Below are positions 1,126 to 24,000 of a stretch of DNA of 24,000 bases, piece after piece. Each line of letters begins with the position of its first letter. The first letter of the stretch is position 1. The translations under genes were made by a program, and so were the position numbers. This DNA is from Syntrophomonadaceae bacterium (GTDB lineage: Bacteria; Bacillota; Syntrophomonadia; Syntrophomonadales; Syntrophomonadaceae). Under the pieces are notes generated by a model. It ran no database searches and was not told the DNA's origin. It saw only the letters and a program-made list of their open reading frames with translations. The stretch is taken from NCBI GenBank assembly GCA_028706315.1, contig JAQWBP010000018.1:1-24000 (forward strand), in the 5' to 3' direction.

Positions 1126-1179
1126 AAATATATTTACTATCGCGAATGTAACGGTGTAGATATTTTTTTTGTCCGTATA

Positions 1180-1195: not shown

Positions 1196-1217
1196 ATTAA
1201 AATAGGAGGAGACTTGT

Positions 1218-1397: not shown

Positions 1398-1471
1398 CAA
1401 TCATCGCACATAAGGCAAGAGGCTAGTTTTACGGCAAATTCTTTTTTGAGACTATGCAGGAGGTGTTATAA

Positions 1472-1711
1472 GTGGTGAAGACATTAATTGAACTTAAACC
1501 TGGAGAGAAGGCCCGGGTTAAAAGAGTTACTGCGCAGGGAACAATTAGGCGCCGTATAGTTGACATGGGATTAGTGCCGGGCACAGAAATAGAAATGGAG
1601 CGGTATGCTCCTCTAGGTGACCCGGTAGAGCTCAAACTGAACGATTATCATCTTTCTCTGCGCAAGGCAGAGGCAGACACTATAATCTTAGAATCACTGG
1701 AGGAGATATAA
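1472..1711 (+). CDS. feoA: Ferrous iron transport protein A (FeoA)
   Basis: GTG start 8 nt after AGGAGG. The 79-aa product carries the FeoA signature (LKPGEKARVKRV...RRRIVDMGLVPGTEIEMERYAPLGDPVEL). Its stop lies 1 nt before the feoB start. Confidence 0.9.
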   Translation: MVKTLIELKPGEKARVKRVTAQGTIRRRIVDMGLVPGTEIEMERYAPLGDPVELKLNDYHLSLRKAEADTIILESLEEI

Positions 1712-1712
1712 C

Positions 1713-3845
1713 GTGGACAGGAAGAAACTTACAATTGCACTAACTGGTAACCCGAACTCGGGCAAGACTACTATTTTTAATAATCTCACCGGAGCTTGTC
1801 AGCATGTAGGTAACTATCCCGGAGTAACTGTGGAACGGAAGGAAGGCCGACTAAAATTTAAAGATTATGAAATAAAGGTTATCGATTTGCCTGGGACTTA
1901 TAGTTTAACTGCTTATTCACCCGATGAGGTTGTAGCTAGAAATGTTATCATCGAAGAAAAACCAAATCTGGTAGTTAACATAGTTGATGGTACTAATTTG
2001 GAACGTAATCTTTATCTGACCATGCAGCTTAAAGAGTTGGACATCCCTATGGTACTAGCGGTAAACATGGCAGATATGGCAGAAGCTAATGGACAAAGAA
2101 TAGATTATCCACTGTTGGCAGAACTACTGGGGATGCCGGTAGTTCGTACCATAGGAACCCGAAATGAAGGAACGGACGAGCTATTAACTAAGGTTATCGA
2201 TGTAACGGAAAAAGGCTTAGTAAGGACGAACAAACAGGTCAATTATGCTGTGGAGGTAGAAGATGCGATAAGCCGTCTTAAAGGATTCCTGCCGGAAGCT
2301 AAAGGTAACGGGATACAAATGGCTGCAGGTGCTGAAAGCATATCAACTTCAGATATTAACTATCCTGCGCGCTGGTTAGCGATAAAACTCTTAGAGGCTG
2401 ATTCTGAGATTATTAAAAAGGTTAAGACTATGCCTTATGGGGGTCCTTTATTAAAAGAAGCTGCGCTTTGTCGGGAAGATATTAGGGGGAAACTGGGAGA
2501 AGACTCGGAATTAGCTATCGTTGATGGACGTTATGCTTACATTCGCGGAGCTACCCGGGAGGCTATTAGTATTAATAAAATCGATCGAGTATCTCTTACG
2601 GAAAAAATAGACTGTGTACTTTTAAACCGGGTGTTAGGAATACCTATATTCCTGGGAACAATGTGGCTTTTATTTCAGTTAACATTTACACTGGGAGCAC
2701 CTATTATGGAATGGATAGAGGCTGGCTTCGGGGTTCTGGGAGAATGGGTCGGGGCCAATCTAAATGACGGCTTACTGAAGTCGCTGGTTGTTGATGGAAT
2801 GATTGGCGGGGTAGGAGGAGTAATCGTTTTCATGCCTAATATTCTGTTACTGTTTCTGGGTATTGCTTTTCTGGAGGGTACTGGCTATATGGCCAGGGCA
2901 GCCTTTGTGATGGATGAAGTTATGCATAAAGTAGGTCTTCATGGTAAATCATTTGTACCCATGTTAATTGGATTCGGATGTACTGTTCCGGCAGTTATGG
3001 CTACACGTACGCTTGAAAACCCTAAAGATAGGCTGGTAACTATGCTGGTAACTCCTTTAATGAGTTGTGGAGCACGCTTGCCGATATATACTTTGTTGAT
3101 TGGGGCCTTCTTCGCTCCGCAGGTAGCAGGTAATATTCTATTTTCTTTGTATCTTATTGGCATAATATTGGCTCTTATTATGGCTAAGGTTTTTCGTACC
3201 TGGTTATTGCCGGGTGAGTCTGAACCCTTTGTAATGGAACTGCCTAGTTATCGTTTACCCACTATAAAAGCTATATTATTACATATGTGGGAAAGAACCT
3301 GGTTATATCTTAAAAAGGCCGGAACTATCATTCTGGCAGCTTCTATCGTTATGTGGGCTTTATTTACCTTCCCTATGGTTGATCAATATGGTAATGAATT
3401 TTCTAGTTCTGAACAACAGGTGGAACAGAGCTATGCAGGCAGAATCGGTCATGCTATAGAGCCGGTTTTAAGTCCCATAGGTTTTGACTGGAAAACCGGG
3501 ACGGCTCTGATGGCGGGTTTAGCTGCTAAGGAAATAGTAGTAGCTACCATGGGAACTCTTTATAGTATAGAAGATGAAGAGGCTCTGGAGGAGAAAGAGA
3601 CAGCTACTGTAAAAACTTTTGCCGAGAGAGCCCGTGAACAATCAGGTTATACACCTTTTACCGCCTATATTTTAATGTTGTTTTGTTTAATATATGTTCC
3701 GTGTTTAGCTACTATTGCCGTGATTAAACGTGAAACTAACGGTTGGAAGTGGCCGCTGTTTACTATCGGCTATACTGTGCTCTTAGCCTGGGTAGTCTGT
3801 TTCATAGTATACCAGGGCGGCGTGTTGCTTGGATTCCAGGTTTAA
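1713..3845 (+). CDS. feoB: Ferrous iron transporter FeoB (N-terminal G domain plus membrane permease)
   Basis: GNPNSGKTT P-loop, DLPGTYS G3 motif and NMAD G4-like motif, followed by a polytopic membrane domain of typical FeoB length (710 aa). Confidence 0.97.
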   Translation: MDRKKLTIALTGNPNSGKTTIFNNLTGACQHVGNYPGVTVERKEGRLKFKDYEIKVIDLPGTYSLTAYSPDEVVARNVIIEEKPNLVVNIVDGTNLERNLYLTMQLKELDIPMVLAVNMADMAEANGQRIDYPLLAELLGMPVVRTIGTRNEGTDELLTKVIDVTEKGLVRTNKQVNYAVEVEDAISRLKGFLPEAKGNGIQMAAGAESISTSDINYPARWLAIKLLEADSEIIKKVKTMPYGGPLLKEAALCREDIRGKLGEDSELAIVDGRYAYIRGATREAISINKIDRVSLTEKIDCVLLNRVLGIPIFLGTMWLLFQLTFTLGAPIMEWIEAGFGVLGEWVGANLNDGLLKSLVVDGMIGGVGGVIVFMPNILLLFLGIAFLEGTGYMARAAFVMDEVMHKVGLHGKSFVPMLIGFGCTVPAVMATRTLENPKDRLVTMLVTPLMSCGARLPIYTLLIGAFFAPQVAGNILFSLYLIGIILALIMAKVFRTWLLPGESEPFVMELPSYRLPTIKAILLHMWERTWLYLKKAGTIILAASIVMWALFTFPMVDQYGNEFSSSEQQVEQSYAGRIGHAIEPVLSPIGFDWKTGTALMAGLAAKEIVVATMGTLYSIEDEEALEEKETATVKTFAERAREQSGYTPFTAYILMLFCLIYVPCLATIAVIKRETNGWKWPLFTIGYTVLLAWVVCFIVYQGGVLLGFQV

Positions 3846-3872
3846 TTCGTAAACCTTTTTCTTTTTTTATTA

Positions 3873-3909
3873 TCCCCCTTGTTTATTACGACAAGGGGGA
3901 TATTTTTTA
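3873..3909 (+). terminator. Rho-independent terminator of the feo operon
   Basis: Perfect 10-bp stem TCCCCCTTGT (3873-3882) / ACAAGGGGGA (3891-3900) with an 8-nt loop, followed by TATTTTTTA. Confidence 0.85.
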
Positions 3910-4175
3910 TACTCTTAATAAGAGTAGGTTGGGAATAAATTATTAAAATAGGCAGTTATTTGGATATATTTTCCGATTTTGCTTTCTGTCTTGTTGCTCC
4001 AATATTCGGGCATAACAGCAATTAATAAATAAGTATAAATAATATTTTGTATAAATTAATAATAAAAAAGCAGGATTATTATCAAGACCATAGAATATGT
4101 ATTAGGTATGATAATTATAAATCAAAAGTATATATTAAAGTTATACTTGTTGATTCATTAAGGGAGGTTATCTAA

Positions 4176-5246
4176 TTGGATAGTCGTAAGTGGTTTATTC
4201 TATTAACAGGTCTGGCAGTTGGGGCTATAGCTGCTATACTTGTTAAGCTGGGTAATCCAGCAAATATGGGCTTTTGTATTGCCTGTTTTGAGAGGGATAT
4301 TGCCGGGGCAATAGGATTGCACCGGGCGGGAATAGTACAGTACATGCGTCCCGAAATTATTGGCCTTATTCTTGGAGCTATGCTTACTTCCATGTTTGCT
4401 GGTGAATTTAAGACTCGTGGCGGGTCGGCCACCTTTGTTCGTTTTATTATGGGTGTTTTTATGATGATTGGTGCCCTGGTTTTCCTGGGCTGCCCACTGC
4501 GTGACATTTTGAGAATGGCCGGGGGCGATTTTAACGCCGTAGTAGCCCTCATAGGCTTTATATGCGGAGTTGGTGCCGGTGTATTTTTCTTAAAAAAGGG
4601 CTTTAACCTGGGTAGAGCTGAATTCAGTCATTCCAATGCTGGCGGTTATTTATTACCGATAATTTTTGTCTTTTTTCTGTTCCTGCTCATAAAAGGAACC
4701 GTATTTAATCCTGACGCAGGAGGCCCTTTATTTTTCAGTACTGAAGGCCCAGGATCAATGGCAGCCCCACTGGGGATAGCACTTCTAGCCGGTCTTGTGG
4801 TCGGTTTCCTGGCTCAGCGTACCCGTCTATGCCTGAGCGGCGGAATTAGAGATTTTATCTTAATCAAAGACAATTATTTATTATTAGGCTTTATTGGCAT
4901 ATTTATTGGTGCTTTAATTCTAAATATAATTTTTGGTTTCTTCAAACCTGGTTTTGCTGATCAACCAGTAGCTCATACTATGCAGGTATGGAATTTCCTT
5001 GGCTTATTCCTAGTTGGCTTAACTGCCACATTGCTAGGGGGATGCCCACTCCGCCAGTTAATCTTATCAGGCGAAGGCGATATGGATGCTGCATCAGTTG
5101 TTGCAGGTATGACAGTCGGTGCAGCCTTCTGTCATAACTTTATGTTGGCAGGAAGCCCTGCCGGGGTAGGTATTTATGGCCAAATCGCCTGTGTAGTAGG
5201 TATTATATTAATGGGCTGGATTGGTTGGAGCTTTAGAGAGGATTAG
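4176..5246 (+). CDS. YeeE/YedE-family inner-membrane sulfur/selenium-compound transporter
   Basis: TTG start 8 nt after AGGGAGG. The product is a polytopic membrane protein with the family's conserved Cys motifs (GFCIACFERD, LGCPLRD, RLCLSGGIRD, GGCPLRQ). A TusA-like gene follows 14 nt downstream. Confidence 0.85.
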   Translation: MDSRKWFILLTGLAVGAIAAILVKLGNPANMGFCIACFERDIAGAIGLHRAGIVQYMRPEIIGLILGAMLTSMFAGEFKTRGGSATFVRFIMGVFMMIGALVFLGCPLRDILRMAGGDFNAVVALIGFICGVGAGVFFLKKGFNLGRAEFSHSNAGGYLLPIIFVFFLFLLIKGTVFNPDAGGPLFFSTEGPGSMAAPLGIALLAGLVVGFLAQRTRLCLSGGIRDFILIKDNYLLLGFIGIFIGALILNIIFGFFKPGFADQPVAHTMQVWNFLGLFLVGLTATLLGGCPLRQLILSGEGDMDAASVVAGMTVGAAFCHNFMLAGSPAGVGIYGQIACVVGIILMGWIGWSFRED

Positions 5247-5260
5247 GAGGTATTACCAAT

Positions 5261-5470
5261 ATGGAAAAGGTTGATGTCAAAGGGCTAAGCTGTCCCATGC
5301 CTGTTCTTAAGACTAAGCAGGCTATTGACGGTGGAGCCAAAGAATTATTAATAGTAGGTACTAGTCAGGTATCCAAAGAAAATGTAAGTAAACTAGCTAA
5401 ATCTCAGGGTTTTAACGTGAATATAACTGTTGATCAGAAGGACTCCTGGGAAATGGAAATAAAAAAATAA
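5261..5470 (+). CDS. TusA/SirA-like sulfurtransferase (YeeD/YedF-type partner of the permease)
   Basis: The 69-aa product has the hallmark N-terminal GLSCPMPVLKTK (CPxP) motif. AGGAGG lies upstream. Confidence 0.85.
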   Translation: MEKVDVKGLSCPMPVLKTKQAIDGGAKELLIVGTSQVSKENVSKLAKSQGFNVNITVDQKDSWEMEIKK

Positions 5471-5533
5471 CAGCTGATGTATAATCTGACTTAGTAATTA
5501 AATCGAGACTAATAGTTAATTAAATGTTAAAAT

Positions 5534-5580
5534 AAGGAAGAGCCTGCTTTGAATGGCAAGGTTCTTCCTTGTTTTGTTTT
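5534..5580 (+). terminator. Rho-independent terminator after the permease/TusA pair
   Basis: 11-bp stem AAGGAAGAGCC (5534-5544) / GGTTCTTCCTT (5560-5570) with one G-U pair, followed by GTTTTGTTTT. The ORF-track ATG at 5553 lies inside this hairpin. Confidence 0.8.
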
Positions 5581-5633
5581 CATTATACTTATTCTTAATA
5601 AGCGAAAGCTTTATTAATACAGGGGTGAAGAAA

Positions 5634-6821
5634 GTGTTTAAACGCTTTAGCATCATAACTCTATTAATATTACTGGGGATATATGCGTCAATTAATTTAT
5701 ATGAGTATACTCACAGTAATACTATGCTACCGGTAACTAAACCTGATAATAAATCATCGATAAATGCTGCCCTAGCTCCAGAAAAGGAGATCATCACCTT
5801 AACTGCAGCTGGAGATTGCCTGATGCATAATACCCAAATCTGGTCAGGATTACAAGATGATGGGACTTACGCTTTCCCTTCGTTTTTTGCCCCGGTAAAA
5901 GATTTAATTAGCGAAGGGGATTATAGCTCGGTTAACTTCGAAACTCCTATGGCTGGTCCAGATTCGGGTTATACCGGGTATCCATTATTTAATAGCCCCG
6001 ACGCTATAGCAGATGATATCCGCGCTGCTGGCTTTGACCTGGTGATAACTGCCAATAATCATGCCCTGGACAGGGGCTGCCAGGGGGCTATCCGTACCCT
6101 GGAGGTATTACATAATGCTGGTCTGGATACGGTTGGAACGTATGAAAATGAAACTGCCAGCCACTCTTTTTTAATTAAAGACATTAGAGGGGTAAAAGTT
6201 GGTTATCTAGCTTATAGCTATGGCACTAACGGTCTACCTGTACCATCTGAGCATGCCTATTTATTTAATTTTCTTGATAAGAAAAAAATTCTAGCCGATA
6301 TGCAAGAGTTACGGCCACAGGTCGATATACTAGTGCTGGTCCTGCACTGGGGAGTTGAGTACCATCCTCAACCTACAAAGGAACAGCGCGCTATGTCTGT
6401 TGAATTTCTAGAGTCCGGGGCTGATGTTATTCTGGGCAGTCATCCCCACGTTATTCAGCCTATGGAAGTAATAAAAATTAACGGCAAAGACAAATTTGTT
6501 ATATATTCTATGGGTAATTTTATCAGCCACCAGATAGGCCAGGAGCGTAATAGTGGGATTGTTCTAAAAATCAAGTTCACCAAACATTTCGATTCTGGTG
6601 AAACATTTCTAGAAACAGTAAGTTATACCCCCACCTTCTCTCACTCTTATTATGAAAATGGGAAAAAGCAGTTCCGGGTAGTTCCTGTGGAAAACACCAT
6701 AGAAAAAATCGAGGCAGGAACAGAACCATATATGTCCAAAGCTGATCTGCCTGTATTGAAGGCAGTCTTAAAATCAACTAGGTCCCAATTAGGTGAAACT
6801 TTTCAGCGTCCAGCAGAATAA
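5634..6821 (+). CDS. CapA/PGA_cap-family membrane-anchored metallophosphoesterase (poly-gamma-glutamate capsule synthesis-like protein)
   Basis: The mature part carries CapA-family motifs (LTAAGDCLMH, ANNHALD, GSHPHV, MGNFIS) after one TM anchor. I prefer the in-frame GTG at 5634, preceded by AGGGGTGAAG. The 5553 ATG is buried in the upstream terminator. The start remains uncertain. Confidence 0.85.
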   Translation: MFKRFSIITLLILLGIYASINLYEYTHSNTMLPVTKPDNKSSINAALAPEKEIITLTAAGDCLMHNTQIWSGLQDDGTYAFPSFFAPVKDLISEGDYSSVNFETPMAGPDSGYTGYPLFNSPDAIADDIRAAGFDLVITANNHALDRGCQGAIRTLEVLHNAGLDTVGTYENETASHSFLIKDIRGVKVGYLAYSYGTNGLPVPSEHAYLFNFLDKKKILADMQELRPQVDILVLVLHWGVEYHPQPTKEQRAMSVEFLESGADVILGSHPHVIQPMEVIKINGKDKFVIYSMGNFISHQIGQERNSGIVLKIKFTKHFDSGETFLETVSYTPTFSHSYYENGKKQFRVVPVENTIEKIEAGTEPYMSKADLPVLKAVLKSTRSQLGETFQRPAE

Positions 6822-6922
6822 TACCTTAGTATGCCTATTAAAGCTATGCAAAAGACTTGCTTACTGAAGGTGGAATAATACATTTATGATAAATAATGTT
6901 AACATTAATGGGAGGTGATAGT

Positions 6923-9040
6923 ATGAAATTAAGAGAAATGATGACCCCTAATCCCTTGACCTTAAGTCCAAACCAAAAAATTAGTGAGGCAGCAATTATT
7001 TTTATGGAAAATAAAGTGGATGGTGCTCCAGTACTAGATGAAAACCGTAAATTAGTAGGGCTTTTTACTAAGAGCCATATTTACCGTGTTATAAACAGCC
7101 ATATGGACATGAGTATGAAAGTTGAAGATTTAATGACCCGAGAAATTCTCACCGGACATCCTGATGATAAGTTTGATGAGGTGATAACCCCCCAGGTACC
7201 TCGACTGCCTGTAGTTGATGAAACAGGTGTAGTAGGGATGATTTGTCGTGGAGATATAGCCAAGGCTTTTTTTAATTCATATCGTAACATTTCTCTTGAA
7301 CTTGATACTATTATGAATTCCACCCACAATATGATTGTTTCAGTTGATGAGCAGGGAATGGTAAAGGTTTTTAACCGATCGGCTGAAAAACTACTTTGCA
7401 TAAAGGCAGCTGAAGTTATTGGGAAAAACATATTAGAGATACTTCCTAATAGTGGACTTATGGATGTAATTAATACTGGAAAGGTAGAACCATTACAGAA
7501 AGTGAAACTTAATGAACGCTTTTTTATATCTAACCGCTCTCCTATAAAAAAGGATGGTAAGATTATTGGCGCGGTAGCTGTCCTCCAGGATATATCTGAG
7601 ATTAATAAAATGTCTAAGGAACTGCGTTACGTTAAGGAATTGAATGAAGAACTGGATGCTATAGTTGAATCATCCTTTGATGGGCTTTTTATAACCGATG
7701 GTGATGGAAATATACTACGTTATAATAAGGCATTTGAGCAGCTAACAGGAATAAATGCACATGAATATAGGGGAAGAAGTGTAAGCGACATTAAAAATGA
7801 CGGAATTCTTACCGAACCTGTAACGTTTGATGTACTGAAACAAAAGAAAACTATTACGGTTATGCAAGAAAGCAGATATGGTAAGATTACTCTAACTACT
7901 GGTAATCCGGTAATTGATAAAAATGGAGATATAATAAGAGTTGTATGTAATGTAAGAGATATTACCGAGTTAAACATGTTAAAACAGAAACTTGAGCAGG
8001 TGCAGGGGCTAAGTCAGCACTATGAAAGCCAGCTTCGTACCCTAAAGTTGCAATATGATAATAGTGAAAAATTGGTATTCACTTCAACTAAGATGAAGAA
8101 TTTGGTAAGTATGGTCGTAAGGTTGGCAGTTGTGGACTCGACTATTTTAATAACTGGTGAATCGGGTACTGGCAAGGAACTAATTGCTGAGATAATACAT
8201 AACAATAGTTCACGTAAAGATAAGCCATTTATTAAGGTGAACTGCGGAGCTATTCCTGAAAACTTACTGGAGTCAGAGTTGTTTGGGTATGACAGAGGAG
8301 CATTTACTGGAGCCAGAAAAGAGGGCAAGCCAGGATATATTGAACTGGCTGCCGGAGGCACTTTACTACTAGACGAGATTGGCGAAGTGCCTCAAAACAT
8401 ACAAGTAAAACTTTTGCGATTTTTACAAAGTAAGGAAATTAGCAGAGTGGGTGGGAGGAGTTATAATAAAGTTGATGTTCGCATCTTAGCGGCTACAAAC
8501 AGGGATTTATTAGATATGGTGCAGCGCAATGAGTTTCGTGAAGACCTTTATTATAGATTAAATGTAGTGCCGGTGCATGTACCACCTCTGCGTGATAGGA
8601 AAGAAGATATCCCATCACTGATATCACATTTCCTGCAGTTATTCAACCGCAAATATAAAATGAATAAAAGAGTATTACCAGAAGTAGTTGATATTTTCAT
8701 GGAATATAATTGGCCGGGCAATGTTAGGGAACTGGAAAATCTTATTGAGAGATTAGTTGTGATTACACTCAACGAAATAATCAGTCGTGAAGATCTACCT
8801 TCCCATTTGGCGAAACCGCAAGATGAGAGCACTCCTTATGTGTTAGTTTCGGGCATAATTCCCCTACGGGCTGCTATTGAAAGTGTAGAGAAACAACTGC
8901 TAGAAAAAGTGTATGCGCAATTCAGAACTACTCGTCAGATGGCCAAGGAATTGGAAGTGGATGCATCTACGGTAGTTAGAAAGGCTGCGAAATATAATGT
9001 TTCGCAAGAGAAAAAAAATAAGAACAGGCAGCAACCGTAG
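6923..9040 (+). CDS. Sigma-54-dependent transcriptional activator (CBS pair, two PAS domains, AAA+ domain, Fis-type HTH)
   Basis: ATG at 6923 follows GGGAGGTG. The N-terminus has a CBS-pair pattern (MTPNPLTL...VDGAPVLDE...LPVVDE), followed by two PAS-like segments. The AAA+ core has GESGTGKE (Walker A), LLLDEIGE (Walker B), the sigma-54 contact loop GAFTGA and NVRELEN. The C-terminal HTH is TTRQMAKELEVDASTVVRK. Confidence 0.93.
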   Translation: MKLREMMTPNPLTLSPNQKISEAAIIFMENKVDGAPVLDENRKLVGLFTKSHIYRVINSHMDMSMKVEDLMTREILTGHPDDKFDEVITPQVPRLPVVDETGVVGMICRGDIAKAFFNSYRNISLELDTIMNSTHNMIVSVDEQGMVKVFNRSAEKLLCIKAAEVIGKNILEILPNSGLMDVINTGKVEPLQKVKLNERFFISNRSPIKKDGKIIGAVAVLQDISEINKMSKELRYVKELNEELDAIVESSFDGLFITDGDGNILRYNKAFEQLTGINAHEYRGRSVSDIKNDGILTEPVTFDVLKQKKTITVMQESRYGKITLTTGNPVIDKNGDIIRVVCNVRDITELNMLKQKLEQVQGLSQHYESQLRTLKLQYDNSEKLVFTSTKMKNLVSMVVRLAVVDSTILITGESGTGKELIAEIIHNNSSRKDKPFIKVNCGAIPENLLESELFGYDRGAFTGARKEGKPGYIELAAGGTLLLDEIGEVPQNIQVKLLRFLQSKEISRVGGRSYNKVDVRILAATNRDLLDMVQRNEFREDLYYRLNVVPVHVPPLRDRKEDIPSLISHFLQLFNRKYKMNKRVLPEVVDIFMEYNWPGNVRELENLIERLVVITLNEIISREDLPSHLAKPQDESTPYVLVSGIIPLRAAIESVEKQLLEKVYAQFRTTRQMAKELEVDASTVVRKAAKYNVSQEKKNKNRQQP

Positions 9041-15874: not shown

Positions 15875-16291
15875 ATGGTGCGGTTATTTAAAGCTTGGTC
15901 GATAGTAGATAACTTTTATGAGAAGGATCAGGTATTGCTTAACTGGTTTGTAGTAGGCAGGCAAACACCAATAGCTCCTTATGAAGAACTAGTTGATAAT
16001 TATGATGAAAATGAGGATGAGGTCTGGTGTGATCATCTACTGGTAAATGAATTTTTTACTGAACCGGAAATAGAGGGATTAAGGGATTATCTTCTGGAAT
16101 TTCATGAGCTTGAGGTTCGGGTAGAAGAAGTATCGTTGCCGGTGTGTTCCGGGGGGCTAAGTTATAGTCTCCTGCTGATAAATGGTGCGAAGGATTTTTA
16201 TCCTTTAGCTGATGAAAAGGAATATAAGCTCGATATATCTGTCCTGGGGCATTTTGATTTGGAAGAAGAGGTTCAAATGAGAAGACAGTAA
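15875..16291 (+). CDS. Hypothetical acidic protein (138 aa)
   Basis: AGGAGGAACAACT precedes the ATG, and a TATAAT-like hexamer lies ~35 nt upstream. The composition is strongly acidic (runs of D/E). I recognise no family. Confidence 0.6.
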   Translation: MVRLFKAWSIVDNFYEKDQVLLNWFVVGRQTPIAPYEELVDNYDENEDEVWCDHLLVNEFFTEPEIEGLRDYLLEFHELEVRVEEVSLPVCSGGLSYSLLLINGAKDFYPLADEKEYKLDISVLGHFDLEEEVQMRRQ

Positions 16292-16302
16292 GGAGCTAAA
16301 TC

Positions 16303-16515
16303 ATGAAAATTGGAGATAGGGTGATAATAAGTGAACCTAGGCACCCATTATTTCAATATAAAGGTATGCTAGTAGGTTTCCGCGGTGAAGGAAAACCTGG
16401 AGATATATGGTTGCTAATTTTAGTTGACCTCTATAATCGAAGTTATCTTGTTCCACAATCTATGGTGGAATTAATACCAGAGGAGAATGATACGAACAAT
16501 AACGAAGAGCTCTAA
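16303..16515 (+). CDS. Hypothetical small protein (70 aa) with a KOW/SH3-like N-terminal pattern
   Basis: AAGGAG RBS 11 nt after the previous stop suggests translational coupling. The pattern MKIGDRVIIS...YKGMLVGF resembles small SH3/KOW-like beta-barrel proteins. The assignment is weak. Confidence 0.55.
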   Translation: MKIGDRVIISEPRHPLFQYKGMLVGFRGEGKPGDIWLLILVDLYNRSYLVPQSMVELIPEENDTNNNEEL

Positions 16516-16560
16516 AATATAGCTTTATCTAACTTGAGATGCCTAAACTTAATATATTAT

Positions 16561-16730
16561 GTACAGCGGGTTCTTTGTGTAATGGCAAAGAACTAGGGAA
16601 CCAGGTGAAAAACCTGGACGGTCGCGCCACTGTAAGCGGGGAGCATGTTTCCACTTTGCCACTGGGCTTTAAGCCTGGGAAGGCGGAAACAGGCAAAGAG
16701 CCGCAAGTCAGGAAACCTAACCGTTGTGCC
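16561..16730 (+). promoter_or_regulatory. Cobalamin (B12) riboswitch aptamer
   Basis: Conserved cobalamin-riboswitch blocks appear in the correct order: AGGGAA, CCAGGTGAAAAACCTGG, GCGCCACTGTAAGCGGGGA, GCCACTGGG...CCTGGGAAGGCGG and the B12-box-like AGTCAGGAAACC. A candidate P1 pairs ACAGCGG (16563-16569) with CCGTTGT (16721-16727). A TTGAGA ... TATATTAT promoter-like stretch lies at 16534-16560. Confidence 0.9.
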
Positions 16731-16770
16731 GCACGTGATACCTTCGCAGGAAAGGAGGAGTGCTTACGTA

Positions 16771-16818
16771 AAGTAAAAGCTTCAACTTAACTGTAAAAAA
16801 GTTGAAGCTTTTACTTTT
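16771..16818 (+). terminator. Riboswitch expression-platform terminator
   Basis: Perfect 18-bp stem AAGTAAAAGCTTCAACTT (16771-16788) / AAGTTGAAGCTTTTACTT (16799-16816) with a 10-nt loop, ending in a TTTT run. Confidence 0.9.
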
Positions 16819-16961
16819 GAATACAAGTACAATTATGTTTTGTAGTAAAAATATTTGCTAAAGCCATAATAGAGGGAATTAGGGCGTAATATTGCTAAAA
16901 CCGAACTTGTAGAGTGATGAACGTGGAAATATAAGGTGATTTAAGGATTAGGAGTGATAAA

Positions 16962-19900
16962 GTGAAGAAAAAACTAAGTTTTTTAATAATAGTGACTTTT
17001 CTATTAACAGCTTTTTTTACTGTCCCTGTACTTGGGGCAGATAATCTATCAGTCGAAGATTCACTAAAAGAAATTGTTTCTTATTACGAAAATAGCAAAA
17101 CTACCTTAGATAATTGGGAGGAAGTAGTTGGATTAGCGAATGCTGATGTAGATTTATCGGCTGAACCATGGCAATTACCTGATTGGCAGGTGGATTCATT
17201 AAATGAAAATTCTAACCCCACAGAATATGCAAAAGTAATTTTAGGAATGCGGGCAGCTAAACAAGATTCAACAAATGTAAATGGCAGGAACCTTGTTAAT
17301 GAACTGGCTGCTAAACAAGAAGTAACTGGGAATTTTGGTGAGTATATTACCGATACTATATGGTCTATGGTTGCTTTGGATACAGCCGGTAAAACTTATG
17401 ATGTATCCGGTGCTGTAGATTACCTATTAAATAAGCAGACAAGTGATGGAGGATTTGCTTTTAGCGGAGACATAGCTGATCCGGATATGACTGGTTTTAC
17501 CTTAATTGCGCTTGCATCTCATATGAATGTGGAAAGTGTTAATGACGTTGTTTATCAGGCAGAAGAATGTTTGAAATCTATTCAATTAGACAGTGGCGGA
17601 TTTGGCTATGGTGGTGGTGATGCAGAAAATTCTGCGTCAAGTGCTGCTGTTATTAGAGGATTAGTTGCCTGTAATAAAGACATTACATCGTCTGAATGGA
17701 CTAAAAATGGTAATTCAATGATTGATGCTCTTTTTGAATTTCAATTACCTAATAAATCTTTTTCCCATCTAGGTAGCGAAACTAGTGACTTATCTACCAG
17801 ACAAGCTTTGATAGCTATTACTGAATTAATAAGTAATGGTTTTGGTAATTACATAATAAGTGGAACAGTTCCTGTTAGTGCTCCGGAGGAACCTACTGTT
17901 CAAATTGAGGTCACAGTTAGAGTAGAAGGATTAGAAGACACGGGTACGATATTGGACGAAACACTAGTAAACATAGATTCAGACAGCAGGGTCTTTGATG
18001 CCTTAAAGCAAGCATTAGATGATGCCGGGGTAAGTAATAGTATAAATACTGCAGCAGAGTGGTTATCAATAGATGATATTTCTATAGATACGGCGGCAGA
18101 GATAAGTGAAAATTTCTATTGGATGTATACGGTAAATGACAATTTAAACACAGATACTAATCCTGTGTTAAACCAGGGAGATGCCATAACTGTATATTTA
18201 ATAAAGTATCCTACCACTTTTTATGCAAAATTATCTCTAAGTAAAGAAGAAGTTAATAAGGGCGAAAAGGTAAAAGCAGTAGTAAACAAATCAGATGGAG
18301 GATGGCCAGCAAATTATATTCCTGCAGACGGAGTACAAGTACATTTTGGGGATGAAATCTATATCACAGATGAAAATGGTGAAGTTGAAGTTACTATACA
18401 GACTGCTGGAACATTCAAGGTATATGCTGATAAATATGACGAATCGGGAATACCAGGGATAGTAAAGACAGCAAGTAAGACGCTAGTAGTAAAGGAAAAT
18501 AGCTCTAATCCAGGATCTACAGAAACTGGTATAACTGTAAAAATTGCTATTTTAGGAAAACAGGGTAATCTATTATATGGTCCTGGCAGTGTAATTATTT
18601 CTAAGAATGACAGTTATGGGCAAACTGCAATGAGTGCACTGGATGCTACTAGCTTAAACTGGACGATTTCCAATACCTGGGATGGCTTAGTTACTGAAAT
18701 AGCAGGTGAAGAAAATGAAGGTATGAATGGGTGGATGTATTCAATTAATAATAATAGCGCTTGGGATGTTCCCCAAAATGCAAGTGTTTCTAACGGAGAT
18801 AAAGTTTTGTTCTGGTACAGTATGGATGCGATGGAAAAGGGGCCAACTTGGAACGATGTAGAAAATTTATCAAAGGGGAATTTAGAAAATACAACAAACG
18901 TAATTAAGGATGAAAAAAAAGTTAAAGAAAGGTTAACCAGCTATATTGAGGAAATTACAGCGTTGAGTAAAACCAAAGCTTTAAATGCAGACAACCAGAT
19001 GACCCAGAAAGAGGCCAATAAAATAAAATCAGAACTGGCAGATAACACAGTTAACCTGAGTAAAGAAGTAGGGAAAGCAGAGGCTGTAATAGCAGATACG
19101 GAAGTATCTATGCTGGTACCGGAAAATGCACTTTCACAGACTAAAAGTTTAACTATTAAAGAATTAGCTGCTAATAAAGAAACTCAACAGTTCGCGGTCA
19201 AATTAGGATCATCAATTTATGAATTTGGTCCCAGCGGAACAAAATTTGACAAACCAGTAACTATTAGTCTTGCAATAGCCATAACTGAGGATATGGATAT
19301 TGAAAATCTGACTCCGGCCTGGTATGACGAGGTCAACAAACAGTGGATTCCTATTCCGGGTGTTATAGATCTTAAAACAGGTTTAGTAGTATTTCAAATT
19401 GACCATTTTACTAAGTTTGCTGTAATTGATTTACCAGATATTTTACCGGAAATTTTACCAGAACTTTTACCAGACAGAGTCACTTTTACTGATGTAGGTG
19501 AGAATATATCTTGGGCCCAAGATGCCATAGAAATTCTGGCCGGGAAGGGAATTATTAATGGTACAGGGCAGGGATTGTTTGAACCACAAAGATGCATAAG
19601 CAGAGCAGAATTCGTTCAGCTGATAGTAACATCTCTACAACTAAAATCCGAAGAGTATGACGGCTTATTTAGCGATGTGGATTCTTCAAACTGGTTTGCA
19701 GGTGCCGTGGCAAGTGCATCAAATAATAAAATTGTCTCAGGATATCCTGAGGGTACTTTCAAGCCTAACAATAGTATAAGTAGAAACGAAGTTGCCAGCA
19801 TTTTTTATTATTTAGAAGGTACTAAAAAGAGTAGCAATGATGTTAACCTGGTTTTTTCCGATTTGGATAATATACCTAAATGGGCGGCAGATGGAGTTAA

Positions 19901-20027
19901 TTATGTTCATACACAGGGACTAATGCAGGGCTATGAAGATGAAACATTTAGAGGAAATGATCCATTAAGCAGAGCCGAAGCAGCTGTTGTTCTCTACAAA
20001 TACCTTAACTCTGTTTCCAGTATTTAA
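16962..20027 (+). CDS. Secreted, SLH-anchored multidomain protein: alpha/alpha-toroid (prenyltransferase-like) repeats, two DUF4430 (transcobalamin-like C-terminal) domains, Ig-like modules and three SLH domains
   Basis: GTG start 7 nt after AGGAG. Signal peptide MKKKLSFLIIVTFLLTAFFTVPVLGA. Repeats of the Q..DGGF type (NKQTSDGGFAF, IQLDSGGFGYG) span aa ~30-295. Two segments (aa ~315-413 and ~524-620) have the DUF4430 pattern (V.V.I.G....L........T..DAL........G....I.G......W.Y.VN......GD.V.F.Y). Three C-terminal SLH repeats begin FTDV..., FSDV... and FSDL... (aa ~840-1021). Confidence 0.9.
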   Translation: MKKKLSFLIIVTFLLTAFFTVPVLGADNLSVEDSLKEIVSYYENSKTTLDNWEEVVGLANADVDLSAEPWQLPDWQVDSLNENSNPTEYAKVILGMRAAKQDSTNVNGRNLVNELAAKQEVTGNFGEYITDTIWSMVALDTAGKTYDVSGAVDYLLNKQTSDGGFAFSGDIADPDMTGFTLIALASHMNVESVNDVVYQAEECLKSIQLDSGGFGYGGGDAENSASSAAVIRGLVACNKDITSSEWTKNGNSMIDALFEFQLPNKSFSHLGSETSDLSTRQALIAITELISNGFGNYIISGTVPVSAPEEPTVQIEVTVRVEGLEDTGTILDETLVNIDSDSRVFDALKQALDDAGVSNSINTAAEWLSIDDISIDTAAEISENFYWMYTVNDNLNTDTNPVLNQGDAITVYLIKYPTTFYAKLSLSKEEVNKGEKVKAVVNKSDGGWPANYIPADGVQVHFGDEIYITDENGEVEVTIQTAGTFKVYADKYDESGIPGIVKTASKTLVVKENSSNPGSTETGITVKIAILGKQGNLLYGPGSVIISKNDSYGQTAMSALDATSLNWTISNTWDGLVTEIAGEENEGMNGWMYSINNNSAWDVPQNASVSNGDKVLFWYSMDAMEKGPTWNDVENLSKGNLENTTNVIKDEKKVKERLTSYIEEITALSKTKALNADNQMTQKEANKIKSELADNTVNLSKEVGKAEAVIADTEVSMLVPENALSQTKSLTIKELAANKETQQFAVKLGSSIYEFGPSGTKFDKPVTISLAIAITEDMDIENLTPAWYDEVNKQWIPIPGVIDLKTGLVVFQIDHFTKFAVIDLPDILPEILPELLPDRVTFTDVGENISWAQDAIEILAGKGIINGTGQGLFEPQRCISRAEFVQLIVTSLQLKSEEYDGLFSDVDSSNWFAGAVASASNNKIVSGYPEGTFKPNNSISRNEVASIFYYLEGTKKSSNDVNLVFSDLDNIPKWAADGVNYVHTQGLMQGYEDETFRGNDPLSRAEAAVVLYKYLNSVSSI
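19428..19475 (+). repeat. Four tandem 12-bp repeats encoding a (D/E)(I/L)LP x4 linker
   Basis: GATTTACCAGAT ATTTTACCGGAA ATTTTACCAGAA CTTTTACCAGAC encodes DLPD ILPE ILPE LLPD. It lies in frame between the body of the protein and the SLH anchor. Confidence 0.9.
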
Positions 20028-20129
20028 CGAGAAAATAAATTTTTAATGCACTGCTGGTTCAGGTAAGCTACATAAGGCTGGGCTGGCAGTGCACATCCCG
20101 TTTCAATTTTATGGATAAGGGGGATAGCT

Positions 20130-21293
20130 GTGAAAAATAGATTATTATGCCTAGTATTGACCGTATTTTTAATATGGATGGCGGTTACCATTTCTGGTTG
20201 CAGCACTAATAAAACTAATGATAATAGCATATCTGTCAATGGCAGTTCTGTTACAACAGATAAAGCAAAGGGTAAAACTAATGATGAAAAAATTAAAATA
20301 GAAACACAAGAACAAGCGTCACAGGGAGAAAGTAAGGAAAATAAAGTTGATAATGAAAGAAATGCTATTACTCCAAGCCATGACAGTGTTGCGCAAAATA
20401 CATCTAATCAGGCTGGTAAAACAACTAGTACTAATGACATGGTAACTCTATTTATAACCAAAGATTTTGGGGTTCAAATTTTAGTTGAAAAACAGGTAGC
20501 AATTAACAAAAATTGGACAATTATTGATCTTCTAGCATCGGTTTCAGAAATAGATACTAAATGGAATGGCGGTTTTATAAATAGTATTGACGGACTGGAA
20601 TCTAATAACGGTGGTATGTCAGGCAAAAGATTCGACTGGTTTTACTATATAAATGGAATTTGTTCTGATGTAGGGGCTGCGGAATATGACTTGAAGGCTG
20701 GGGAAGTAGTTTGGTGGGATTATCATGACTGGAAAAGCATGGGATCTACTAATTCAGCAGTTATCGGCTGCTATCCGGAACCATTTGTGCGCGGTTACCG
20801 GGGTAAGATCGGAGCAACAACAGTTATGAGTTCCGCAGATAATCAGAGTCTAGCCACTGACCTGCAAAAAGCGCTGAAAGTGAAGGGAGTCCGTTCTGTT
20901 AATGTCAAGGAATTAGATAATAATGTACTGGAAAACAGACAGGTACCTACGATTGTTATAGGTACGTGGAATGAAGTTAAACAGCTTTCCTGGCTGGAAA
21001 AGTTTAATAATGCCTATAGAAAAACAGGTACCAGTGTTCATTTTACTGATAAAGGGTTAGAACTGCTGGATCATAGTGGAGCAGTAGCTCAGATGATTGA
21101 TAAAAGTGCTGGTGTTATAGTTGCTGCTGGATCAGGCCTGGGAGATACTAGTCCCCTCTGGATGCTTGTTGGTACTGATCAGGAAGGTTTAAAGCAGGTA
21201 GTAGATATACTAGTTAATAAACCGGAGGAAATTTCTAGATTATATAATGCGGCAGTAGTTTCAGGAAAAGTTATCAGATTGCCATTACAGTAA
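20130..21293 (+). CDS. Lipoprotein with a DUF4430 (transcobalamin-like) domain and an uncharacterised C-terminal domain
   Basis: GTG start after AAGGGGGA. The signal peptide has a lipobox (LIWMAVTISG-C, Cys24) and is followed by a low-complexity linker. A DUF4430-like segment spans aa ~105-201 (VTLFITKDFG...TIIDLL...GFINSIDGL...WFYYINGI...AGEVVWWDY). Confidence 0.8.
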   Translation: MKNRLLCLVLTVFLIWMAVTISGCSTNKTNDNSISVNGSSVTTDKAKGKTNDEKIKIETQEQASQGESKENKVDNERNAITPSHDSVAQNTSNQAGKTTSTNDMVTLFITKDFGVQILVEKQVAINKNWTIIDLLASVSEIDTKWNGGFINSIDGLESNNGGMSGKRFDWFYYINGICSDVGAAEYDLKAGEVVWWDYHDWKSMGSTNSAVIGCYPEPFVRGYRGKIGATTVMSSADNQSLATDLQKALKVKGVRSVNVKELDNNVLENRQVPTIVIGTWNEVKQLSWLEKFNNAYRKTGTSVHFTDKGLELLDHSGAVAQMIDKSAGVIVAAGSGLGDTSPLWMLVGTDQEGLKQVVDILVNKPEEISRLYNAAVVSGKVIRLPLQ

Positions 21294-21313
21294 AAAAGGA
21301 AGCGAAACAAATT

Positions 21314-22228
21314 ATGCTTGTGTATCGGGAGAAGGATAATTTAATTCATAAATTGCATCCCTTTACCATTGTAGCTTTTGTTGGAGTAGTTTTTATTTTA
21401 TCTTTGGTTCTTTCTCATCCTGTTTACCTGTTAGGCTTGTTTCTGGCAGTGGGAGTAGTTATTATTGCTGCTGGGCATCTCAAGGAATGGAAGGTTTATC
21501 TTAAGTTTAGCATTATTATGATAATAATAATTATGATTATCAATGCTATTTTTGCTCAGGTAGGAGAGACAGTATTATTCATAGGTCCGCGGATTCCTGT
21601 ATTAGGGAAGATTAAAATAACCATGGAAGCTTTAGCATTTGGGGCAGGGATGGGTGTACGGCTGCTGGTTATCATCAGTGCGTTCTGTCTTTATACTTAT
21701 GCAGTGCACCCGGATAAGGTGTTAAAACTATTTAGCAAATGGGGTAATAAGTCGGTTATTGTTATAACTTTATCTACCCGTCTACTTCCTCTAATGGTTG
21801 GGGATTATTTGAGAATAACCGAGGTACAGCGCTGTCGGGGAGTAAAATTAGATACTGGTAGATGGTGGGAACGTGCCAAAAATATACTACCAGTAGTTAG
21901 CGTAATTTTGATATCCTGCCTCGAGCGTTCCTTACAGTTGGCTGAATCTATGCATGCCCGCGGTTATGGTAGTGGGTTTAGAACCTATTATACTCGAGAA
22001 TTGTGGCGCCCCAGAGACTATATAATCCTTACGGCATTATTTATTAGTTTCATAACCGGGGTATGGGCTGCTTTGCAGGGTTGGTCTAATTATAGCTACT
22101 ATCCCCGGCTGTCGGTAATTAATCTGGGAGAAATAAAAGCAGCAAGTATTGTGGTATTAACATTAATGATTCCTGCCATTCTTAATTGGGGGTGGAAGAA
22201 ATGTCCGTTATTAAAATCAAAGATCTGA
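21314..22228 (+). CDS. ECF transporter transmembrane (T) component, CbiQ/EcfT family
   Basis: Polytopic membrane protein with the characteristic N-terminal LHKLHPFT and the two coupling-helix motifs (ITEVQRCRG and ESMHARGYGSG). Confidence 0.88.
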   Translation: MLVYREKDNLIHKLHPFTIVAFVGVVFILSLVLSHPVYLLGLFLAVGVVIIAAGHLKEWKVYLKFSIIMIIIIMIINAIFAQVGETVLFIGPRIPVLGKIKITMEALAFGAGMGVRLLVIISAFCLYTYAVHPDKVLKLFSKWGNKSVIVITLSTRLLPLMVGDYLRITEVQRCRGVKLDTGRWWERAKNILPVVSVILISCLERSLQLAESMHARGYGSGFRTYYTRELWRPRDYIILTALFISFITGVWAALQGWSNYSYYPRLSVINLGEIKAASIVVLTLMIPAILNWGWKKCPLLKSKI

Positions 22229-23901
22229 ATTATTGGTATCCCGATACCCAAAAGCCATCATTAGATAGAATTAATTTAGAAATTCCCGAGGGGCAGTTTG
22301 TTCTAGTAGTAGGGGGTTCCGGTAGTGGCAAGTCGACTTTGGTTCGTGCTATAGCTGGCTTGATTCCTGAATTTTATGGTGGCACTTATGGAGGAAAGGT
22401 TTATATAGATGATAATGAAGTCAAAGCAATTGATCGGCGTAGTCTGATTCAAGAGGTAGGAATGGTTTTTCAGAATCCGGAGAGCCAGTTGGTAATGACT
22501 AATGTAGAACAAGAGATAGCTTTTGGTTTGGAAAACCTAGGTTTACCTAACGGACTTATGAAACGCAGGGTGATGGAGGTTACCAGTGCTCTAGGCTTAT
22601 CAGATTACTTACATAGTTTTATTCCGGAATTATCAGGAGGACAAAAACAGAAAGTAGCTCTAGCTTCAGTTTTGGCCATGCAGCCGAATATACTTTTATT
22701 GGATGAACCTACTTCCCAGTTGGATCCTATTGCTGGTGAAGATATTTTAAACATGATAAGACGATTGAATGAGGAAAATGGTATTACGGTGGTTCTAATT
22801 GAGCAGCGTTTGGAAAGGTGTTTTCATCTGGCTGACAGGATACTAGTTATGGATAAAGGACAGATTGTTTATGACCATCATGCCCCGGAGGCGATAGCTC
22901 ACTGGGCAGTGAAAACCACTACTCCTTTTATACCCCCGCTGGTCCAATTGTTTGCCAGTATAGGATATCCGGAAATACCGGTAACAGTTAAGCAGGGAAG
23001 GCGTATTCTTAAATCCTATTATCTACCTAGCAATTTAAATGCACAAAGGTCAGTTACTTTAGCAAAAAAATCAGAAGTTATGGAAGTAAGCCGAGAAGAA
23101 TGCTTAGTGGATATTAAGAATCTCTGGTTTACTTACTCCAATGGTGAAGAAGTTCTAAAGAATATAAATCTTAAAATTAAGCCAGACGATTTTATGGTGT
23201 TAATGGGGGAAAATGGGGCTGGGAAAACCACTCTCATGAGAAATATAAACGGCTTGCTTAAACCTAGCAGAGGAAAGGTTAATGTTTTAGAAAAAGAGAC
23301 TAAAAATTTATCCGTAGAAGAACTTGCATCTGATGTTGCTTATCTATCCCAAGATCCTAATGATTACTTGTTCCTGCCTACTGTTCAAGAAGAACTTACT
23401 TTTACGTTAAATAACCTGGGTCTTGCAGATGACGGAATTAGTCAAGAAATTATGACCCAGCTAAAGCTAACTCCTCATGCAGAAGTAAATCCCCGGGATT
23501 TAAGCACCGGGGAACGCCAGAGAGTAGCCCTAGCTTCCGTTCTGGTAACCAGACCCAAATTACTATTACTGGACGAACCTACTCGCGGACTGGATTACCT
23601 TTTAAAAGATGAACTTGGGAAAATCCTGTTGCAGTTTCAGGCAGAAGGAACTGCCATTCTCATTATTACCCATGATGTGGAATTTGCTGCTGAATATGCT
23701 GAAAAGATTGTATTGATGGCTGACGGGACTATAATTGCTCAAGGAAACAAATATGAGATGCTTACCAACTCTACGTTTTATTCACCCCAGATTAGTAAGT
23801 TGTTCAATAATATAGCCGATGGCGTAGTAACAATTGATCAAGGTAAAGAGGTATTAAGGAAGATAATGGAATTCAATAAAAATGAAGTTCTTTCCGTTTA
23901 G
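22201..23901 (+). CDS. Fused tandem ABC ATPase of an ECF transporter (EcfA-EcfA', CbiO-like)
   Basis: Two complete nucleotide-binding domains. Walker A: GGSGSGKST and GENGAGKTT. Signature: LSGGQKQKV and LSTGERQRV. Walker B: LLLDEPTS and LLLDEPTRG. ATG at 22201 follows GGGGGTGG and overlaps the T-component gene by 28 nt. Confidence 0.95.
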   Translation: MSVIKIKDLNYWYPDTQKPSLDRINLEIPEGQFVLVVGGSGSGKSTLVRAIAGLIPEFYGGTYGGKVYIDDNEVKAIDRRSLIQEVGMVFQNPESQLVMTNVEQEIAFGLENLGLPNGLMKRRVMEVTSALGLSDYLHSFIPELSGGQKQKVALASVLAMQPNILLLDEPTSQLDPIAGEDILNMIRRLNEENGITVVLIEQRLERCFHLADRILVMDKGQIVYDHHAPEAIAHWAVKTTTPFIPPLVQLFASIGYPEIPVTVKQGRRILKSYYLPSNLNAQRSVTLAKKSEVMEVSREECLVDIKNLWFTYSNGEEVLKNINLKIKPDDFMVLMGENGAGKTTLMRNINGLLKPSRGKVNVLEKETKNLSVEELASDVAYLSQDPNDYLFLPTVQEELTFTLNNLGLADDGISQEIMTQLKLTPHAEVNPRDLSTGERQRVALASVLVTRPKLLLLDEPTRGLDYLLKDELGKILLQFQAEGTAILIITHDVEFAAEYAEKIVLMADGTIIAQGNKYEMLTNSTFYSPQISKLFNNIADGVVTIDQGKEVLRKIMEFNKNEVLSV

Positions 23902-23971
23902 TTTACATATCAATAGAAGATTTAGAGGAGGAATAATAGCGGAAAGTATCTGATCAATGAGGGATGTCTAA

Positions 23972-24000
23972 ATGAAAAGCAATTTTCTTACGGTTATTAT
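23972..24000 (+). CDS. Start of a further co-directional gene, truncated by the window edge (possibly a membrane protein)
   Basis: ATG at 23972 lies 7 nt after GAGGGA and encodes MKSNFLTVI... Only 9 codons are visible, so this is speculative. Confidence 0.3.

Follow-up and report, generated by a model that had tools for sequence, protein, structure and literature searches.

A cobalamin riboswitch operon of a Syntrophomonadaceae bacterium that probably joins transcobalamin-like surface proteins to a dedicated CbrT-type transporter for corrinoid capture and import

A stretch of 24,000 nucleotides (nt) of a Syntrophomonadaceae bacterium, positions 1 to 24,000 of contig JAQWBP010000018.1 (assembly GCA_028706315.1) and referred to here in its entirety as the window, ends in an operon of five genes that is preceded by a cobalamin riboswitch. 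We consider it likely that this operon captures corrinoids, the vitamin B12 family, outside the cell membrane and imports them. The first two genes encode extracytoplasmic proteins with transcobalamin-like domains, namely a protein anchored by S-layer homology (SLH) repeats (P1) and a lipoprotein (P2), and the remaining three encode the T component, the fused ATPases and the S component of a CbrT-related energy-coupling factor (ECF) transporter. Most bacteria depend on B12-type cofactors that they are unable to produce themselves. The locus described here represents a clean and compact example of a widespread system whose linkage to riboswitches is strong among the best-matching loci. The coordinates of its features are listed in Table 1.

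The leader of the operon carried both elements that the preliminary description of this DNA had reported, a cobalamin riboswitch and a terminator. Analysis with cmscan matched the full RF00174 model (1-189) at E 5.9e-29, with a score of 116.5 bits where the gathering score is 31.5, and this was the sole Rfam match in the window. The same aptamer was also the top match of covariance model R1, which was built in the present analysis. The hairpin (16770-16817) begins 32 nt past the end of the aptamer, lies in a T-rich context and consists of 19 perfectly paired bases, so that the 18 bp given earlier were essentially right. Its minimum free energy was -33 kcal/mol (z -5.9), a value that 0 of 200 shuffled sequences equalled, and the hairpin was kept when the whole leader was folded. 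Together with its T-rich tail, it is an intrinsic terminator. From this leader anatomy we infer regulation as an OFF switch, in which plentiful intracellular cobalamin would bind the riboswitch, the 19-bp terminator would form and transcription would stop, and scarce cobalamin would let the operon be read through. Two open reading frames (ORFs) of 138 and 70 amino acids (aa) near 15875-16515, just upstream of the riboswitch, had no family matches. A third ORF of 83 aa (16539-16790) shares sequence with the riboswitch and was set aside as almost certainly spurious.

The earlier claim of at least five co-directional and tightly spaced genes was borne out, with gaps of 102, 20, -28 and 71 nt in order. 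A consensus terminator scan called no terminator in any gap of the operon, which agreed with the previous statement that no convincing one separates the genes. Between P1 and P2 there is nevertheless a hairpin of 16 bp, which has no U-run and was not called by the scan. This element may act on mRNA stability or as a partial attenuator, and could stabilise a transcript of P1 only. The gene that had been noted as merely starting at the edge of the window was completed with public contig L001, which carries an identical ATPase gene followed by identical DNA. On L001 this fifth gene (2322-3035) encodes an ECF S component of 237 aa and is followed by a convergent gene, and the operon therefore comprises five genes. 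Additionally, a protein 100% identical to P2 was found in a Syntrophomonadaceae metagenome-assembled genome (MAG).

Table 1. Features of the operon and its leader in the window; residue numbers refer to the protein named.
Feature	Position	Strand	Basis or remark
Cobalamin riboswitch aptamer, RF00174	16551-16738	+	cmscan
Putative expression platform, terminator hairpin and T-rich tail	16770..16822	+	sequence and folding
P1, SLH-anchored protein, 1021 aa	16962-20027	+	ORF, translation
P1 toroid and beta domain 1, residues 27-416	17040..18209	+	AlphaFold2 and Foldseek
P1 all-beta immunoglobulin (Ig)-like spacer, residues 422-511	18225..18494	+	AlphaFold2, all strands, pLDDT ~90
P1 second transcobalamin-like beta domain (DUF4430), residues 524-620	18531..18821	+	PF14478
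P1 ZU5-like domain, residues 701-830	19062..19451	+	PF00791, 25.9 bits vs cut-off 21
HFT motif, P1 residues 815-817	19404-19412	+	within 'IDHFTKFAV', end of ZU5-like domain
P1 SLH repeats, residues 842-1012 (starts 842, 903, 965)	19485..19997	+	PF00395
16-bp hairpin, P1-P2 gap	20047..20093	+	folding, -32.8 kcal/mol, z -2.3
P2, DUF4430 lipoprotein, 387 aa	20130-21293	+	ORF, translation
P2 C-terminal alpha/beta domain, 175 residues	20766-21290	+	AlphaFold2, pLDDT >95
ECF T component	21314-22228	+	PF02361
Fused EcfA-EcfA' double ATPase	22201..23901 (ORF opens TTG 22186)	+	two ABC_tran domains
Start of fifth gene, S component	23973..24000 (first 28 nt only in window)	+	rest from contig L001

The N-terminus of P1 reads MKKKLSFLIIVTFLLTAFFTVPVLG/A, a Sec signal peptide, and three stretches near its C-terminus matched the SLH family (PF00395, 134.5 bits), in line with its earlier description as a 1021-aa SLH-anchored protein. 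Judged by these features, P1 is a predicted secreted protein that is held at the cell wall. Between the two ends follow, in order, an alpha/alpha toroid (residues 27-300), a first beta-grasp domain (314-416), the Ig-like spacer, a second beta domain of the DUF4430 type, a linker and a ZU5-like domain. P1 had been described as containing two DUF4430-like domains. The second of these was detected by Pfam directly (PF14478 on residues 553-620, E 9.9e-8, 32.8 bits vs a cut-off of 23.8) and showed the beta-grasp pattern in the AlphaFold2 model, whereas the first stayed below threshold by sequence in a fragment scan (E 0.02, 15.8 bits) and was recognized through the structure model. No Pfam family matched the spacer at residues 422-511.

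An alignment-based AlphaFold2 model of P1 residues 27-640 reached a mean predicted local distance difference test (pLDDT) score of 91.3, and the 15 best PDB matches of this model by Foldseek were all transcobalamin, haptocorrin or intrinsic factor. These alignments covered 417-451 columns on targets of 378-414 residues, and their E values lay between 2.4e-10 and 3.1e-8. As modelled, the first ~400 residues of P1 form a complete two-domain module of the transcobalamin/intrinsic factor/haptocorrin type, which is more than prenyltransferase-like repeats joined to a DUF4430 domain, and we read P1 as a putative bacterial transcobalamin. A weak match of the toroid to the Pfam family Prenyltrans was also seen (29.8 bits, fragment scan), and an enzymatic role as a prenyltransferase or terpene cyclase was rejected, as the toroid has no DxDD motif and the prenyltransferases and terpene cyclases ranked below the transcobalamin family in the Foldseek comparison.

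P2 had been called a DUF4430 lipoprotein, and both parts of this name held. Its signal peptide ends in the lipobox TISGC with Cys24 as the cysteine, which was present in at least 90% of 35 homologues (alignment A2), and PF14478 was matched with E 5e-14 and 52.9 bits against the cut-off of 23.8. Between Cys24 and the beta domain (residues 104-212) runs a linker of 80 residues in which S, T, N and K abound, and its length would allow this domain to reach into the wall. The rest of the protein (213-387) is a flavodoxin-like C-terminal domain. AlphaFold2 modelled residues 97-387 with a pLDDT of 93.5 and a predicted template modelling (pTM) score of 0.91. In Foldseek searches, the beta domain superposed on the beta domain of haptocorrin (4kki) with a root-mean-square deviation (rmsd) of 1.9 A over 106 columns, and it also matched the DUF4430 crystal structure 3u7z. 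The whole P2 model matched BcsB, and the C-terminal domain resembled parts of BcsB and of GH115 enzymes. No Pfam or NCBIfam family was found for this C-terminal domain, which was present in 80 of 80 surveyed relatives and seems to represent a domain family that has not been described and is linked to B12 riboswitches.

The remaining genes of the operon encode the parts of an ECF transporter. The T component, recognized as such in the preliminary description, matched PF02361 (CbiQ) with 60.8 bits, and its translation contains the Arg-Gly motifs RCRG and HARG, which we take to be the coupling-helix motifs of T components. On the CbiQ equivalog model TIGR02454, it scored 42.5 bits vs a cut-off of 111.8, and it is therefore not a cobalt CbiQ equivalog. 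The double ATPase was likewise correctly named as fused, with two ABC_tran domains (215.6 bits) and scores of 408 bits on TIGR04520 and 397 bits on TIGR04521, both above cut-off. Its translation start is probably ATG 22201, as the resulting 566-aa product is found exactly in public assemblies and the product from TTG 22186 had no exact match.

The S component identified the type of the transporter. Searched against the PDB with phmmer, it had a sole significant match, 6fnp_A (E 6.5e-15 over ~165 residues), which is the 182-residue membrane protein of the ECF-CbrT entry; the next S component followed with E 0.81. Its Pfam matches were ECF-ribofla_trS, ECF_trnsprt and DUF6580. At 237 aa, the protein is longer than CbrT by ~55 N-terminal residues that include two hydrophobic stretches, and its relatives range from 199 to 234 aa. 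Altogether, these similarities classify the transporter as a putative dedicated (group I) ECF system of the CbrT type, and a dedicated ECF unit coupled to transcobalamin-like proteins under a riboswitch is what had been proposed for this locus. ECF-CbrT itself was shown to import cobalamin and cobinamide (PMC5997447).

The association of these parts was examined across genomes. Relatives of P2 are encoded by at least 591 species genomes of the Bacillota, the Actinomycetota (mainly Solirubrobacterales) and the Chloroflexota (Dehalococcoidia); one genome per species was scanned. The best 80 loci were surveyed for riboswitches with a covariance model built from five riboswitches, and for genes by searching the domains of the window against the translated ORFs of the same loci, counting those on the same strand. 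Riboswitches lay upstream on the same strand in 54 of the 80 loci. When the comparison is confined to the 54 loci whose upstream flank measures 6 kb or more, 47 had one. The T component was found in 69 of the 80 loci, the fused ATPase in 67, the CbrT-like S component in 60, the toroid, often as a separate gene, in 60 and SLH repeats in 27, and many of the absences in these counts are contig truncations. The link between riboswitch, lipoprotein and ECF genes thus held across phyla, with the ECF genes usually adjacent.

The order riboswitch, P2, T component, ATPase, S component and toroid protein recurred in the Solirubrobacterales loci and in many others. In the Solirubrobacterales and several Dehalococcoidia loci, a separate toroid gene stands right after the S component gene, and these loci show no SLH domain. 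SLH-anchored giants like P1 occurred within the sample only in loci of the Bacillota type. The conserved core of the system is thus a beta-domain lipoprotein, a toroid protein and an ECF-CbrT unit. Three diverged P2 relatives, from a Clostridia MAG, from Desulfallas and from an actinobacterial-type contig, each have a cobalamin riboswitch directly upstream. The first two share the gene order of the window, except that an additional toroid-SLH gene precedes the S component, and the third is a stripped-down version of the cluster.

Some loci of the survey showed additional features. Tandem riboswitches precede the first surface-protein gene in Desulfallas (L005, 2971-3164 and 3547-3737) and in L027 (2137-2666), and L006, L032 and L037 also have two same-strand cobalamin riboswitches upstream of the cluster. 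Protein P0115 combines a P1 toroid homologue with a periplasmic binding domain of the BtuF/FhuD type (PF01497) in one chain, and this fusion ties the toroid independently to uptake that depends on binding proteins.

With these observations in hand, the operation of the system can be sketched as follows. P1 would display on the wall a module in which the toroid and the beta domain sandwich one corrinoid, together with a spare beta domain. At the membrane, P2 would offer a tethered transcobalamin-like beta domain packed against its flavodoxin-like domain. The two proteins would capture corrinoids outside the membrane and pass them on to the S component, with ATP hydrolysis driving the import. 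The hand-over could run from P1 to P2 to the S component, or P2 and the toroid could act together as a split transcobalamin. The corrinoid-capture proposal of the preliminary description is well supported as a reading, and it loses its claim to novelty to the prediction of Burroughs et al. 2007 (PMC1796856). The two-tier relay from wall to membrane, which had been proposed with it, is possible as one of several readings, and the presence of the toroid in 60 of the 80 loci favours the split transcobalamin.

Several observations weigh against corrinoid capture and import. Full-text literature searches found no published demonstration of corrinoid binding by bacterial members of these families, and the one system with this set of parts that has been studied experimentally, lsa1836-1840 of Lactobacillus sakei, was reported to take up heme (10.1101/864751). 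The superposition of the two P1 domains on the transcobalamin family had an rmsd of 10-13 A and a template modelling (TM) score of ~0.44 (Foldseek), and because of this high rmsd the model does not fix the orientation of the domains or a closed cleft. The eukaryotic family Cobalamin_bind was absent from the Pfam scans of P1 (E<=0.01, and E<=1 for the fragment), and a sequence profile of the P2 family found no transcobalamin among PDB sequences. Since sequence profiles do not reach transcobalamin, the link to it rests on DUF4430 and on predicted structure. Among the loci with full flanks, 7 of 54 had no detectable riboswitch, and no ECF genes were detected in eight loci (L028, L031-L033, L035-L037 and L064).

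The alternative that survives best is that P2 and the toroid form a split transcobalamin, with the beta domain of P2 docking onto the toroid to build one heteromeric site by the transporter. We regard this as possible and would put it forward only tentatively; it is not exclusive with corrinoid capture and import as favoured here. The toroid would be that of P1 in the window and mostly a separate protein elsewhere, and the beta domains of P1 would be additional or alternative lids. Such an arrangement would fit the survey, in which the same-strand toroid of the 60 loci is often its own gene and some loci have no SLH domain, and would also fit L003 and L005, which have their extra toroid-SLH gene between the ATPase and the S component. 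The authors of the L. sakei study modelled Lsa1839 (beta) and Lsa1840 (alpha) as a heterodimer (10.1101/864751), and complexes of paralogous surface proteins were proposed by Burroughs et al. (PMC1796856). What speaks against docking is that the only toroid of the window is already covalently linked to a beta domain of its own, with which it aligned like transcobalamin, and that the P2 beta domain is packed rigidly on its own C-terminal domain in the model, so that the docking face could be occupied.

Alternatively, the surface proteins could sequester or store corrinoids at the wall, either in competition with neighbours or as a buffer in a syntrophic community, and not feed the transporter. 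P1 has up to three modules that could contact corrinoids and that are located away from the membrane, and the high-affinity surface binder BtuG of Bacteroides is known to withhold B12 from competitors (PMC13616437). We nevertheless consider this unlikely, since a complete importer is transcribed with these genes under a single riboswitch and synteny is conserved, both of which argue for delivery. Sequestration and delivery are also mutually compatible.

Uptake of heme or of another non-corrin tetrapyrrole, as claimed for lsa1836-1840, appears very unlikely for the window operon in spite of the experiments behind that claim. The L. sakei operon matches the one in the window in all five functional parts (S, fused ATPase, T, beta and alpha); its deletion mutant accumulated less heme, and its overexpression raised the uptake of 57Fe-heme (10.1101/864751). 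The same paper contains 0 mentions of a riboswitch. The cobalamin riboswitch on the window operon and on 47 of 54 related loci argues that demand is set by cobalamin and not by heme. Additionally, the best solved relative of the S component is CbrT, the fold matches of the surface proteins are B12 carriers, and the neighbouring genes are related to corrinoids, with an adenosyltransferase and a B12-dependent mutase in the window and CbiZ in L037. The locus also challenges the assignment to heme of the one homologous system that has been studied.

A further candidate, an ECF transporter for cobalt (or nickel) ions like CbiMNQO, is suggested by the Pfam name CbiQ of the T component, by the NCBIfam cobalt-ATPase models that match the ATPase and by the fact that cobalt transporters are commonly under B12 riboswitches too, but it is scarcely credible given that no CbiM or CbiN is present, that the S component is CbrT-like, that the T component falls so far short of the CbiQ equivalog, that in Desulfallas a distinct CbiM-CbiQ-CbiO cluster is found directly upstream of the operon's counterpart and that transcobalamin-like binding proteins would be senseless for a free ion.

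The HFT motif of the ZU5-like domain of P1 lies ~25 residues ahead of the first SLH repeat, and HF[ST] was conserved throughout the 9 SLH-anchored homologues in which the motif occurs. In alignment A4 of the SLH-anchored homologues, H and F were invariant and T or S occurred in at least 90%. H-F-S is the self-cleavage site of the ZU5-type domains of PIDD and of the related Nup98 domain. Bacterial surface proteins with ZU5 autopeptidase domains have been noted as well (PMC3482391). As a single sequence, the ZU5-like region had no match in the PDB, and its profile had weak matches to the ZU5 domains of ankyrin and ZO-1 (E 0.15-0.9). Because the profile aligned weakly and over the N-terminal half only, the alignment of HFT with the known cleavage sites is unproven.

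The conserved HF[ST] before the SLH anchor hints at autoproteolysis of P1. Given the distance of the motif from the SLH repeats, self-cleavage at HFT would split the ectodomain from its anchor. We would speculate, as a rather doubtful extension of the proposed mechanism, that P1 nicks itself at HF|T and that the loaded ectodomain stays non-covalently on the SLH anchor, from which it would be handed inward, or would be shed as a diffusible B12 carrier and recaptured by P2 and ECF-CbrT. If this were true, corrinoids would be relayed in three stages in a bacterium that lacks an outer membrane, in a mechanistic echo of animal transcobalamin and its receptor.

Outside the operon, the window contains genes for likely consumers of the imported cofactor. 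Between 9692 and 13407, 5-7 kb upstream of the operon, are encoded a cob(I)yrinic acid a,c-diamide adenosyltransferase, a B12-dependent acyl-CoA mutase split into a catalytic subunit of 560 aa and a B12-binding subunit of 134 aa, and its chaperone MeaB; an enoyl-CoA hydratase gene follows. Candidate types of the mutase are methylmalonyl- or isobutyryl-CoA mutase. Further upstream, at 211-9040, are a DtxR-type repressor fused to FeoA, FeoB, a protein of a sulfur-transport family, a PGA_cap protein and a sigma-54 activator that contains CBS and PAS domains, all of which are unrelated to the operon. Of the eight surveyed loci without detected ECF genes, all except L031 have a riboswitch upstream of their P2-family gene. 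In L028 (5668-13435), the P2-family gene is followed by genes for proteins of 665, 244 and 532 aa without a Pfam family, and then for an AAA_3 ATPase of the MoxR type and a DUF58 protein. In L037 (4573-9443), it is followed by a gene for a 686-aa protein without a Pfam family, and the riboswitch-CbiZ unit of this locus is a separate one just upstream.

Among known systems, the closest to the transporter itself is ECF-CbrT of Lactobacillus delbrueckii (PDB 6FNP; Santos et al. 2018, PMC5997447), with which the window system shares a homologous S component and the architecture of S, T and two ATPase domains. By analogy with ECF-CbrT, the window system would be expected to import cobalamin and cobinamide. 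It differs in that the window module is dedicated and is encoded with its own S component, that the ATPases form one chain, that the S component has the N-terminal extension described above, and that the operon adds two extracytoplasmic proteins and a riboswitch. Santos et al. mention neither a riboswitch nor an operon (PMC5997447).

The complete list of parts recurs in lsa1836-1840 of L. sakei, where Verplaetse et al. described the alpha- and beta-like proteins as extracellular scavengers and reported heme uptake (10.1101/864751). The likeness is one of parts, namely the S component, the fused A-A' ATPase, the T component and the extracellular beta-like and alpha-like proteins. In L. sakei, alpha and beta are separate small proteins, whereas in the window alpha is fused to beta in a 1021-aa SLH-anchored protein. 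The L. sakei experiments point to heme, whereas the riboswitch control of the window operon points to corrinoids. With the defined constructs that can be derived from the present locus, corrinoid capture by such proteins becomes directly testable.

The concept of such a system is already published, as it was predicted computationally in 2007, and the operon of the window is one further example. Burroughs, Balaji, Iyer and Aravind described SLBB surface proteins of Gram-positive bacteria in which a beta domain is fused to an alpha/alpha toroid, with examples that include Desulfotomaculum and Syntrophomonas, and operons with a second paralogous extracellular beta-domain protein, CbiO and CbiQ (PMC1796856). 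From purely computational evidence, the surface complexes were predicted to scavenge B12, and animals were proposed to have acquired transcobalamin from such bacteria (PMC1796856). These proteins and P1 and P2 have in common the beta-grasp domain, the fusion to a toroid, signal peptides and surface anchors. The words riboswitch and SLH have 0 occurrences in the text of Burroughs et al. (PMC1796856), and the ZU5-like domain and the lipoprotein's C-terminal domain are not in the available part of their account. The S component was not identified there because the paper predates both the ECF concept and CbrT. What is added here is the recognition of the S component as related to CbrT, the quantitative linkage to riboswitches, the transcobalamin fold that P1 shows at full length, the way in which the P2 family is built, with its unannotated C-terminal domain, and the ZU5-like feature.

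A 2026 review calls extracellular cobamide capture in Gram-positive bacteria 'entirely uncharacterized' and never mentions transcobalamin-like proteins (PMC13616437). In Bacteroides, BtuG, BtuH and BtuJ feed BtuB by the same logic, with riboswitch-controlled surface binders ahead of a transporter (PMC13616437). That relay is experimentally proven, and it differs in being built from unrelated folds (beta-propeller, Ig-like, DUF4465) and in consisting of outer-membrane lipoproteins of a diderm with a TonB-dependent transporter. The families of the BtuG beta-propeller and of the BtuH domain were not among the Pfam or NCBIfam matches of P1 and P2. The suggestion that the window proteins are an analogue of BtuG and BtuH from unrelated parts is thus right about the parts, which are toroid, beta-grasp, Ig-like and flavodoxin-like folds, and the analogy is functional at most.

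In structure, the nearest counterparts are the mammalian proteins transcobalamin, intrinsic factor and haptocorrin, all of them extracellular B12 carriers, whose toroid and beta domain align with P1 over nearly their full length. The identity is 13-17%, the bacterial protein is wall-anchored and multidomain, and its partner would be an ECF transporter in place of an endocytic receptor. The operon described here bears on the proposed bacterial origin of animal transcobalamin.

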